Source of the DNA: Octopus sinensis
Taxonomy: Eukaryota
Length of the DNA stretch: 64,000 nt
Assembly: GCF_006345805.1 (NCBI RefSeq)
Contig: NC_043003.1
Coordinates: forward strand, 37,014,001 to 37,078,000
Direction of reading: 5' to 3'
Positions 17,571-48,240 of this stretch are shown here, piece by piece. The stretch's first letter is position 1, and each line of letters starts with the position of its first letter. The translations under genes and the position numbers were made by a program. Under the pieces are notes generated by a model. The model was not told where the DNA came from. It was given only the letters and a program-made list of their open reading frames with translations, and ran no database searches.

Positions 17571-18380
17571 AAGGCGGCGGGCTGGCAGAAACGTTAGCAC
17601 ACCGGGCGAAATGCTTAGCGGTATTTCGTCTGCCGTTACGTTCTGAGTTCAAATTCCGCCGAGGTCGACTTTACCTTTCATCCTTTCTGGGTCGATAAAT
17701 TAAGTACCAGTTATGCACTGTGGTCGATGTAATGGACTTAATACCTATGTCTGTCCTTGTTTGACCCCTCTATGTTTAGCCCCTTGTGGGTAATAAAGAA
17801 ACAGGTATTTCGTCTGTCTGAACATTCTGAGTTCAAATTCTGCCGAGGTTGACTTTGCCTTTCATCCTTGTGGGGTTGAATAAATAAGTACCAGTTACGC
17901 ACTGGGGTCGATATAATCGACTTAATCCGTTTGTCTGTCATTGTTTGTCCTCTCTGTGTTTAGCCTCTTGTGGGTAGTAAAGAAATAGAAATAGGTATTT
18001 CGTCAGTCTTTACGTTCTGAGTTAGAATTCCACCGAAGTCAACTTTGCTTTTCATCCTTTCGGGGTCTATAAAATGAGTACCAGTTGACTACTGAAGTTG
18101 ATCTTATCCACTTACCCACTAATCCGAAATTTCTGGCCTTGTACCAAAATTTGAAACTAATATTATAATAATATTATATTATAAAGCACACCGGACAAAA
18201 TGCTTAGCGGCATTTAGTCCGTCTTTGATTTCTGAGTTCAAATTCCGACAATGTTGTATTTTGCCTTTCGTCCTTTAGGGGTCGCTGAAAAAAGTGACTG
18301 TTGAGAATTGGGGGGGTTGATGTAATCGATTATCCCTTTAGCCCCAGAATCCTAGGCCTTGTGTCAATAGCAGGATGGAT
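17571..18380 (+). mobile_element. Multimeric SINE family A: one head plus three internal units, followed by a further degenerate copy
   Basis: The unit beginning gtatttcgtc recurs at ~17621, ~17805 and ~17995. Another copy lies at ~18185-18380. Confidence 0.9.
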
Positions 18381-28798: not shown

Positions 28799-28837
28799 AT
28801 TTAAGCCCAATACTGAGTGTTGTGGGTTTCTTGGTAC

Positions 28838-29283
28838 CTATTTCTTTACTACCCTCAAGGGGCCAAACACAGAGAGGGCAAACAAGGACAGACAGACAGA
28901 TTAAGTCGATTATATCGACCCCAGTGCGTAACTGGTACTTATTTAATCGACCCCGAACGGATGAAAGGCAAAGTCGACTCAGAACGTAACAGCAGACGAA
29001 ATACCTATTTCTTTATTACCCACAAGGGGCTAAACACAGAGGGGACAAACAAGGACAGACATAGGTATTAAGTCGATTACATCGACCCCAGTGCGTATCT
29101 GGCACTTAATTTATCGACCCCGAAAGGATGAAAGGCAAAGTCGACCTCGGCGGAATTTGAACTCAGAACGTAGCGGCAGACGAAATACCGCAAAGCATTT
29201 CGCCCGGCGTGCTAACGTTTCTGCCAGCTCGCAGACGAAATACCGTTAAGCATTTCGCTCGGCGTGCTAACGTTTCTGCCATC
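28838..29283 (-). mobile_element. Multimeric SINE family A with a duplicated head
   Basis: Two internal units, plus two head segments ending cgtgctaacgtttctgcca at ~29226 and ~29281. Confidence 0.9.
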
Positions 29284-45103: not shown

Positions 45104-45384
45104 ATCACGCGAAACCGACCAGACCATCAGATGTTGCTACACATCGCTGGTCAGAATGCGTTCGCATTGATTTAGCCTTCGACTGACGCCACCCCGCTGG
45201 CTAAGCGAGTAGGCCAACAGAAGAAAAGTGGAGAGAAAGAGTGGTGAAAGAGTACAACATGGGTCACCACCCCCAATCGGAGCTCGTGGAGCTTTTAGGT
45301 GTTTTCGCTCAAAAACCACACACGATGTCTGGGAATCGAAACACGCGAGTCCGCTGCCCTAGCCACTGGGCCATTGCGCCTCCT
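45104..45384 (-). mobile_element. tRNA-derived SINE, family E, embedded in (TA)n
   Basis: The minus-strand head reads ggaggcgcaatggcccagtggctagggcagcggactcgcg...gtttcgattccc, with A and B boxes and part of the tRNA region deleted. Confidence 0.75.
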
Positions 45385-45387
45385 ATA

Positions 45388-45461
<74 letters not shown>

Positions 45462-45557
45462 TTAGAGACAAAACCACTATTATGCAAATCAAACAAAGAA
45501 AGACTTAAGCCAATACATAAAATAATTTATATAAATTTAGAATTTAACAATATAAAT

Positions 45558-45618
45558 AACCACTACGATCGTTTCATGTCTTATTTCAGCACATCTTTGA
45601 GACATTCTTCAGGTGGTT
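45558..45618 (-). ncRNA. Type I hammerhead ribozyme, antisense-arm copy
   Basis: Reverse complement of 45910-45970. Confidence 0.85.
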
Positions 45619-45909
45619 TCAAAACCAGACTCAATATTCAATAAACCATTAAATATTTAATATTTATTAATAAAATATTTATTAATACAATGAAAAACCA
45701 TGTATAATCTAACTATAATTAAAAACATAACCTAATTAACTAAAAAAATTATTATAATAAGTACTCCATATCACTTAGTATATTTATAATACTAGAACAA
45801 AAACCAATAAATAAGGAGCTATTTAGATGGTTTTTCATTGTATTAATAAATATTCTATTAATAAATATTAAATATTTAATGGTTTATTGAATATTGAGTC
45901 TGGTTTTGA

Positions 45910-45970
45910 AACCACCTGAAGAATGTCTCAAAGATGTGCTGAAATAAGACATGAAACGATCGTAGTGGTT
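45910..45970 (+). ncRNA. Type I hammerhead ribozyme
   Basis: aaccac CTGAAGA atgtct-[18 nt]-agacat GAAAC gatc GTA gtggtt. Stem I is 6 bp, stem II is 6 bp, the stem III loop is palindromic and the cleavage triplet is GUA. Confidence 0.88.
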
Positions 45971-46163
45971 ATTTATAATTGTTAAATTTCTAAATTTATA
46001 TAAATTATTTTATGTATTGGCTTAAGTCTTTCTTTGTTTGATTTGCATAATAGTGGTTTTGTCTCTAATTTAATATAATATAATATTTTACTATAAAATT
46101 GGATTCAATCCTAAATCTGATTTTTCCCTGTAAATTTGGATTTATTCCCTAATATTTATTATT

Positions 46164-46205
<42 letters not shown>

Positions 46206-46252
46206 CATACATACATACATACATACATACATACATACATACAACACAAAGC

Positions 46253-47037: not shown

Positions 47038-47868
47038 AGCAGATAAAACGATAGAAAGAGAGAGATACATACATATTCACATACATAGATACATACATAC
47101 AGATCTGATTGCTAGATAGATACGTACATACATATTTATAGACATAGGTATAATAAATGCGAATGTTAATGTGTCAGTGTGTCACACTTTTTCAGCTTTA
47201 CTTCTAGAGACCGTAGCCCAACATATCATACCATTTTGGAATCAGGTTGACTCCTTGAGTAAATTGATAATATTCCCGGCCGAATCCGGACCCGCAATCC
47301 TGAAATTTTCATTATTGCGATTGTTTTCGTCGATTTTTACGTGATTTTTTGCGACGAATTTTTATTCCGAAAAAACTTTTTCCTCTCCCGAAATGCAATT
47401 CGTAAAAGTTTGCCATTTATCCGGATGTAATATAATGTAAACCTCACCCATGTGCTTCGTTTGATGTTGATCAGTAGCTGATCGGCTTAAGCGGGGCAGG
47501 GTCGTTGTTTATTTATAATACATTCAGGCCTGCTGATGATTACGTAAGTATGAAATCACTGTGATACAGGTCTATATTTTAAATGTCTTACTTTGAAAAA
47601 TTGCATTCGGTGGGATTAGTAAATTTTTGGTATAAATGACTAAATTGTCCCTCTTAGCGTTTGGCATGTAAGTATAATGCCTTCTGGCATGTATGTATAA
47701 TGCCCTCTATATATAAATTAATATGTTCAATAAGAAATAATTATTTCGAAATTTTTTCTCTTATGAGGTTTTTACGCTATCTACCTGACAATTTCTTGTT
47801 AAGTTTTCCCTTATTAAGTAGTTGTCCTTAATTGCTATATATATATAATATATATATATATATAAATA

Positions 47869-48240
47869 TATTAGAGACAAAACCACTATTTTGCAAAACA
47901 AACAAGGAAAGACTTAATCAATACATAAAATTTTAATAAATAGTCAAAAAAAACCGCCACTACAATTGTTCTCTTGTCTTGATCGACATCTTCAGGTGGA
48001 CTTCGAACTGACTTATTGGAAGTCCACCTGAAGATTGTCGATCAAGACAAGAAACAATTGTAGTGGTGGGTTTTTTTGACTATTTATTAAAATTTTATGT
48101 ATTGATTAAGTCTTTCCTTGTTTGTTTTGCAAAATAGTGGTTTTGTCTCTAATAATATTTTATAATATTTTACTATAAATTGGATTTAATCCTAAATCTG
48201 ATTTTTTCCCTGTAAATTTGGATTTTCCCTAATATTTATT
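47869..48240 (+). mobile_element. (TA)n-embedded fold-back element: 136-bp arms (47869-48004 and 48019-48154) plus tail
   Basis: Inverted arms. The tail aatcctaaatctgattttt...ccctgtaaatttggattt is shared with 46077-46162. Confidence 0.92.
48024..48066 (+). ncRNA. Minimal type I hammerhead ribozyme
   Basis: ccac CTGAAGA ttgtc gatcaa gacaa GAAAC aatt GTA gtgg. A slightly damaged antisense copy lies at 47957-47999. Confidence 0.88.

Follow-up and report, generated by a model that had tools for sequence, protein, structure and literature searches.

The window analysed here, a 64 000-nt stretch of the Octopus sinensis genome, carries a hairpin-shaped insertion at 45453–46162, lying between TA-rich microsatellites (Table 1). 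Its inverted arms, 45453–45704 and 45824–46077, are identical in 250 of 254 aligned columns, with two mismatches and two single-base gaps, and an RNA read through the insertion is predicted to fold as one long hairpin (−387.5 kcal/mol; z = −61 against 20 shuffles). A reading made earlier from the sequence alone had described near-perfect inverted arms of ∼250 bp, (TA)n flanks, an intact hammerhead ribozyme on each strand and no ORF; all four descriptions stand, the element being free of overlapping ORFs of ≥170 aa. Because the left (TA)n array fuses with the end of the left copy, no target-site duplication is readable. The left copy terminates, without the tail, at the first of two end sites, which in the right copy lies at 46077–46086, blurred by AT-rich sequence.

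Table 1. Features of the hairpin insertion and its flanks (window coordinates).
Feature	Position	Strand	Remarks
Left (TA)n target microsatellite	45384..45457	.	3′ ends of other copies likewise enter TA repeats
Left copy	45453..45825	-	200 nt of element 3′ UTR (45825–45626) spliced to exon 2 (45625–45453)
Minus-strand type I hammerhead	45558..45618	-	Identical to the plus-strand copy; core from 45612; predicted cleavage after 45564
Left-copy splice junction	45625..45626	-	3′-UTR donor joined to acceptor
Apparent spacer, 119 nt	45705..45823	-	Further 5′ reach of left copy within element 3′ UTR; not foreign DNA
Head-to-head inversion junction, 2-nt overlap	45824..45825	.	Both copies map to these positions
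Right copy, final 79 nt of 3′-UTR exon	45824..45902	+	96% to L031
Right-copy splice junction	45902..45903	+	∼1.86 kb removed relative to L031
Exon 2 of pseudo-LTR with hammerhead	45903..46077	+	Ends at first end site
Minimal type I hammerhead	45910..45970	+	2-bp stem III, palindromic loop; predicted cleavage after 45964
‘Tail’, 76–85 nt, element 5′ UTR	46078..46162	+	Stops at second end site
Right TA/TACA microsatellite flank	46152..46243	.	

Elsewhere in the window, the minus strand of 5217–8223 holds broken frames of a non-LTR retrotransposon, which we take to resemble an AP endonuclease, a reverse transcriptase (RT) and a C-terminal zinc-binding region, and SINE-like units form tandem arrays, of 184-bp units at 17620–18086 and of 167-bp units at 28835–29281.

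The plus-strand hammerhead can be parsed as a conserved core with three stems in which every pair is Watson–Crick: stem I is 45910–45915/45965–45970, stem II 45923–45928/45947–45952, and stem III, with its palindromic 4-nt loop, 45956–45963. The first core strand is 45916–45922, the second starts at 45953, and H17 is 45964; the same motif is present on the minus strand. A scan against Rfam, which the sequence-only reading had proposed as a check, returned no hammerhead match at E ≤ 1, just microsatellite-driven noise, and the hammerhead call therefore rests on the hand-parsed fold and its variation across the family. Fold prediction gave the active monomer a probability of 1e-4 and placed the active dimer (−28.4 kcal/mol) close to the optimum (−28.8 kcal/mol), in keeping with the minimal, dimer-type motif suggested earlier; these energies leave out tertiary contacts and protein help. 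The ribozyme thus modelled likely works only as a dimer, the partners probably being the two hammerheads of one full-length transcript. They would not be the two ribozymes of the hairpin, and joint action of the opposite-strand motifs is not supported: one RNA strand contains one ribozyme and its complement, and because all 61 of its 61 nucleotides are predicted to pair with the opposite arm in a read-through RNA, the two cannot partner each other here. Transcription through the insertion is instead predicted to mask the ribozyme. The dimer activity of such motifs has been described as low, and opposite-strand pairs as lying 100–700 bp apart (PMC4209133).

Ribozyme-bearing ends were collected from the genome by demanding a near-match to the first core strand, and of 166 such ends ∼128 parse as complete hammerheads by hand count, the remainder being mutated or parsing artefacts. 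Covariation was judged from a table of subfamily variants. Twelve variants are represented by at least two copies; among them position 7 is A, U or C, H17 is always A, and 16–38 nt separate the core strands. Their loop III takes one of two palindromic forms, in 7 and 4 variants respectively, the remaining variant having a wobble-compatible intermediate. This pattern of sequence variation is consistent with the active lineage being selected for a dimeric ribozyme. Constraint is not confined to the core, since conservation is also high at both end sites and in the tail.

A search of the 2.72-Gb genome with 45880–46160 turned up 1240 first-look candidates; scoring 40 of them yielded 60 matches at 88–100% identity, and the 97–100% identity of the top copies bears out the earlier proposal of a young family. 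Thirty of the top loci were fetched, and in 24 of them (two of the 24 being the same site) we found an inverted, 5′-truncated copy lying head to head, with an optional tail at one end, a feature of EN+ Penelope-like elements. All 24 partner arms end before the tail; the query included the tail, so that the main arm was selected for it while the partner arm was not. Arm lengths vary freely at the inner ends, and the two outer ends differ by the tail. The displayed 3′ ends all enter TA or TTA repeats (29 of 29), in agreement with the TA targeting inferred previously. Two side observations concern these loci: in L006/L012, itself duplicated in tandem, and in L016, unrelated sequences of ∼240 and ∼460 nt lie between the arms and were possibly captured by template switching. 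We dropped the idea that an extra 5′ G records copying of a cap, as it was confined to a few short copies (L003, L008) and was mostly explained by overlap of the inverted arms.

The sequence preceding the ribozyme exon is of three kinds in these copies: an intron with AG at its end, a directly joined 28-nt exon, or the 3′-UTR sequence seen in the window. In the related copy L031 the 28-nt exon is followed by GT and a 943-nt intron, and the sequence found upstream of the ribozyme exon in the window sits 1.86 kb further upstream, directly preceded by an ORF with a GIY-YIG domain; 45626–45825 is 94% identical to this 3′ UTR, beginning ∼20 nt past the usual ORF stop. Twenty-four other loci were matched by the 3′ UTR: 18 retain the donor unspliced, mostly as GT and in a few cases with a point mutation, five have the spliced join, and one has no site. 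In unspliced copies GT follows directly after the base matching 45902 and AG directly precedes the base matching 45903. Because the unspliced loci continue with a donor at this point, 45902/45903 is an exact GT–AG splice from a donor in the 3′ UTR, donor 1. Donor 1 and donor 2, the latter following the 28-nt exon, use one common acceptor, 13 nt before the ribozyme core.

Counts of exact junctions in the subfamily of the window gave 50 unspliced, 35 donor-2-spliced and two donor-1-spliced, the last being the two arms of this very insertion, while reversed-pattern controls gave 0. Across subfamilies, donor-1 joins were matched 20 times, in 16 insertions with 10 acceptor-side words; since five of the 10 words also follow the intron end in unspliced copies, donor-1 splicing has recurred independently. 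A DNA-level deletion or recombination that happened to remove the intron, with the hairpin as a DNA repair product or a TA-targeting MITE, could be entertained in view of the one base of microhomology at the junction and the MITE-like appearance of TA-flanked inverted arms. However, many subfamilies and both donors have the break at GT and AG, and freely varying inner ends combined with outer ends that differ by the tail are unlike terminal inverted repeats; we give this explanation very little credence. As splicing acts on sense RNA, the spliced copies were templated by sense transcripts. A genome-wide ratio of spliced to unspliced donor-1 sites was abandoned, as most of the 250 unspliced matches listed lie in one 38-bp minisatellite; this array extends over several kb at G000:C1:205141149-205146217 and beyond, and its unit contains donor-1 sequence. 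Sequencing contigs, whose RNA origin is only guessed, showed no informative joint at either donor and no RNA end.

A smaller fold-back insertion, of a sister subfamily, lies 1.7 kb downstream of the hairpin at 47865–48240, with TA arrays on both sides. Its plus-strand hammerhead is intact (core from 48028) and its minus-strand hammerhead mutated, and the insertion retains 9 nt of the small exon, which abut the ribozyme exon at 48014/48015; as L088 and L096 show GT at that position, it is a donor-2-spliced copy.

The autonomous parent can be assembled from related copies. In 5′ to 3′ order it consists of a ribozyme exon, the tail, a start codon, an ORF of ∼800 aa (RT, CxCx5C linker, GIY-YIG), ∼220 nt of 3′ UTR, donor 1, an intron of 1.9–2.6 kb containing the 28-nt exon and donor 2, the shared acceptor, the hammerhead exon, end site 1, the tail and end site 2. 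The suspected link to Penelope-like elements is thereby borne out, as is the expected partner encoding RT and GIY-YIG, whose ORF lies directly upstream of, and contiguous with, 3′ UTR matching that of the window. The tail, on the other hand, had been called unique at ∼86 bp; it is common to the whole family and aligns to the 5′ UTR, continuing in ORF-bearing copies for ∼60 nt to the start codon. Pseudo-LTRs formed by partial tandems are seen in L065, L089, L091 and L101, which carry the ribozyme exon before and after ORF sequence. The hammerhead-to-hammerhead length is 4.9–5.6 kb in genomic copies and would be ∼2.9 kb after donor-1 splicing.

A query with the RT region gave 6247 candidates, of which 150 were scored. 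Among 26 long loci scanned (L096–L099 being checked by alignment) there was no unbroken start-to-stop ORF, the best being 762 aa from a start codon and 859 aa lacking the N-terminus; assembly indels may contribute to these breaks. In the exact subfamily of the window, no ORF copy was seen to reach beyond the endonuclease part. Sequence searches of the ORF against Pfam and PDB returned no RT or GIY-YIG match, and the RT and endonuclease motifs were read from an alignment with homologues (six in databases, at 33–44% identity) and matched by eye to a published alignment. The ORF has DKT in place of DKG, the CxCx5C linker, CxxC and CxH around conserved E and N, and an N-terminal KWK where four of five aligned homologues have RWK or RWR. 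The Hydra clade is defined by DKT, the RWK motif, the CxCx5C linker, CxxC and CxH (PMC8557442, section 11). Neptune and Nematis were considered and rejected, since they require a CX2-5CxxC linker and DKG. Going by these motifs and the by-eye comparison, we place the parent as a Hydra-clade EN+ Penelope-like element. An Asn-rich insert of ∼80–95 aa follows the RT thumb in L090:4048-6291 (minus strand) and is absent from the five aligned homologues; it differs in this from the Hydra clade and recalls the N-rich inserts carried by rotifer Penelope ORFs (PMC3846280).

The sequence-only reading had taken the insertion for a member of an independent non-autonomous family. Viewed against the parent, it is a truncated, spliced piece of a Hydra-clade autonomous element; it has neither a promoter exon nor an ORF and is likely dead. 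A self-cleaving retrozyme or SINE-like family borrowing a Penelope enzyme would account for the ORF-less locus and for the many short ORF-less copies in the genome, nearly identical to one another, that make up the 35 donor-2 junction matches. Yet the whole insertion maps onto the autonomous element, the exact donor-1 form of its subfamily occurs once, and the head-to-tail hammerhead-to-hammerhead units that define animal retrozymes are absent, as are partner arms beginning at the cleavage site. The short copies themselves look as by-products should: in 30 of the 35 that were examined, ≤29 nt lie upstream of the junction, the sequence stopping at or inside the 28-nt exon; their ends are the same two end sites, entering TA repeats except at two loci with no readable end, and none continues into the ORF. 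An independent family of this kind is thus very improbable.

The 5′ limit of the donor-2 copies likely marks a transcription start inside the long intron. In eight ORF-bearing copies the 5′ ribozyme is still preceded by intron sequence, and no donor-2-spliced copy is among them. We had considered a rule that spliced RNA never yields ORF-bearing copies and dropped it, because numbers are small and L186 (G000:C9:94007500-94016499) is a counter-example: there a donor-1-spliced ribozyme exon continues via the tail into the whole ORF region, an arrangement that implies a spliced tandem read-through transcript as template.

How two arms come to lie head to head can be approached through their splice states. 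We found 26 distinct head-to-head pairs, of which 18 can be classified on both sides, and in all 18 the splice states match (seven donor-2, seven unspliced and four donor-1); in the other eight, one arm is truncated or too diverged for the script. Each of the four donor-1 pairs has exactly one tail, the tailed arm being longer 5′ in two pairs and the tail-less arm in two; it is the tail-less arm that extends further 5′ in the window and in L175/L176. Because neither arm of the window contains the other, each needed the RNA, and because both lack the same intron, the hairpin was likely copied twice from one spliced RNA. Both arms span the predicted cleavage site, and among the 30 loci fetched, 24 of them two-armed, no partner arm begins there (the nearest starts are 45960, 45969 and 45972); the template RNA was therefore uncut at the ribozyme.

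Matching splice states would also be expected if, from the same parent and a spliced template, the second arm was made by self-priming of the folded-back first cDNA combined with template switching, or was copied from another RNA molecule of that isoform. The overlaps or palindromes at inversion junctions, 2 nt here and larger in L007 and L019, fit self-priming of the sort described in PMC3846280. Pure fold-back, however, cannot give a tail-less arm that reaches further 5′ than its template, as seen in the window and in L175/L176, and two independent RNAs should produce mixed pairs, of which there are none among the 18 although both forms are common. We regard such an origin of the second arm as unlikely. 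Later conversion between the arms could also make them match. With good confidence, then, we interpret the hairpin as a head-to-head pair of 5′-truncated copies, each derived from the 3′ end of an autonomous Hydra-clade Penelope-like retrotransposon and each lacking the same intron. A single insertion event, in which one spliced sense-strand RNA was primed twice, likely produced both.

The simplest model would have one RNA primed twice at a single TA site. In LINE-1 twin priming, two primings on one RNA likewise give an inversion within one insertion, the sites being the poly(A) and a variable internal position. In the octopus element both primings would instead use two fixed internal sites, with the result that the same segment is copied twice. 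On the model of the anole element, whose protein in vitro cleaves and extends both strands, beginning at a pair of internal sites on either side of the tail (PMC11167929), the octopus protein would cut the (TA)n repeat on both strands, and reverse transcription would be primed from each nick within an RNA left uncut at the ribozyme, one at site 1 and the other at site 2; the two cDNAs would extend unequally far and be joined head to head through a 2-nt overlap.

Much of the visible anatomy is already known, and the two-ribozyme hairpin is an ordinary product of Penelope-like elements: inverted 5′-truncated copies, tails, TA targeting and a hammerhead on each strand have been published (PMC8557442). 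The Hydra clade (Craig et al., 2021; PMC8557442) resembles our family in the C-terminal GIY-YIG, DKT, the CxCx5C linker, CxxC, CxH and (TA)n targets, and its type I hammerheads have an extra base after the first core strand, as here. Penelope-13_HM is listed there with a 5′-truncated inverted copy and a hammerhead on each strand. The supplement of the same paper includes an octopus member, Hydra-1_Obim, with a hammerhead and (TA)n targets, so that the earlier statement that cephalopods had no such description was wrong at the level of the clade; Hydra-1_Obim has other ribozyme stems and a protein clearly divergent by eye, and is a different family. The tail is ∼76–85 nt here as against 30–40 bp given for the Hydra group, and published members are mostly <3 kb, a described tendency rather than a strict criterion, with no intron noted (PMC8557442), whereas the genomic copies here reach 4.9–5.6 kb because of the 3′ intron.

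Penelope of Drosophila virilis also has a pseudo-LTR intron soon after the transcription start, with its 3′ end abutting hammerhead helix I, coexisting spliced and unspliced RNAs, and inverted terminal copies (PMC2377424; PMC4209133). Its intron, however, is single and 75 bp long, while the family studied here has a longer intron, with a further donor in the 3′ UTR, that encloses one of 943 nt, and the spliced genomic retrocopies found here have no counterpart in what those sources report for D. virilis. PAc/Poseidon of Anolis carolinensis, known from work in vitro, has two end sites bounding a tail downstream of the hammerhead, AT-rich targets and an uncut RNA template; it belongs to another clade, and its tail lies inside the ORF, whereas ours is in the 5′ UTR and is known from genomic sequence (PMC11167929). 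Metazoan non-LTR retrozymes share a type I hammerhead with weak stem III, an ORF-less locus and dependence on a Penelope-type enzyme (PMC7761336; bioRxiv 10.64898/2026.07.22.740005). They comprise two or more head-to-tail hammerhead units, with abundant circular RNA as another of their marks, however, whereas the window has a head-to-head pair only, and a direct spliced fragment of an autonomous element.

In the literature searched, outside which lay Repbase, Dfam and older subscription papers, we found no account of the introns of this family or of spliced genomic copies; two donors with one acceptor, retrotransposed spliced and unspliced forms and matched splice states between arms were not found in print. 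The formation of inverted ends and the retention of introns are stated as open questions (PMC8557442, section 15; PMC3846280, Discussion), and for the latter the Discussion of PMC3846280 proposes an antisense template and leaves an unspliced sense template open.

Taken together, the observations admit a joint reading that we would as soon expect to fail as to hold. Both spliced sense isoforms and the unspliced RNA would be reverse-transcribed, so that retention of introns would need no antisense template, and twin priming of a single RNA, at two fixed sites, would give rise to the arms. With the start exon and probably the promoter located within an intron, spliced retrocopies would be dead ends and selection alone would keep the introns, while splicing would leave a ∼2.9-kb message that begins and ends with the same ribozyme exon and is thus poised for dimeric cleavage.

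In this family the splice state labels the template RNA like a natural barcode. It demonstrates copying of spliced sense RNA and points to a single molecule as the source of both arms. With its nested introns, spliced retrocopies and matched arms the family is useful for both open questions. As there are dozens of young copies, the pattern of arms and splicing can be counted in a whole-genome census, and the young copies are ready substrates for the existing in vitro assay. The family thus likely offers a genomic test of how these elements insert and of why their introns are usually retained.
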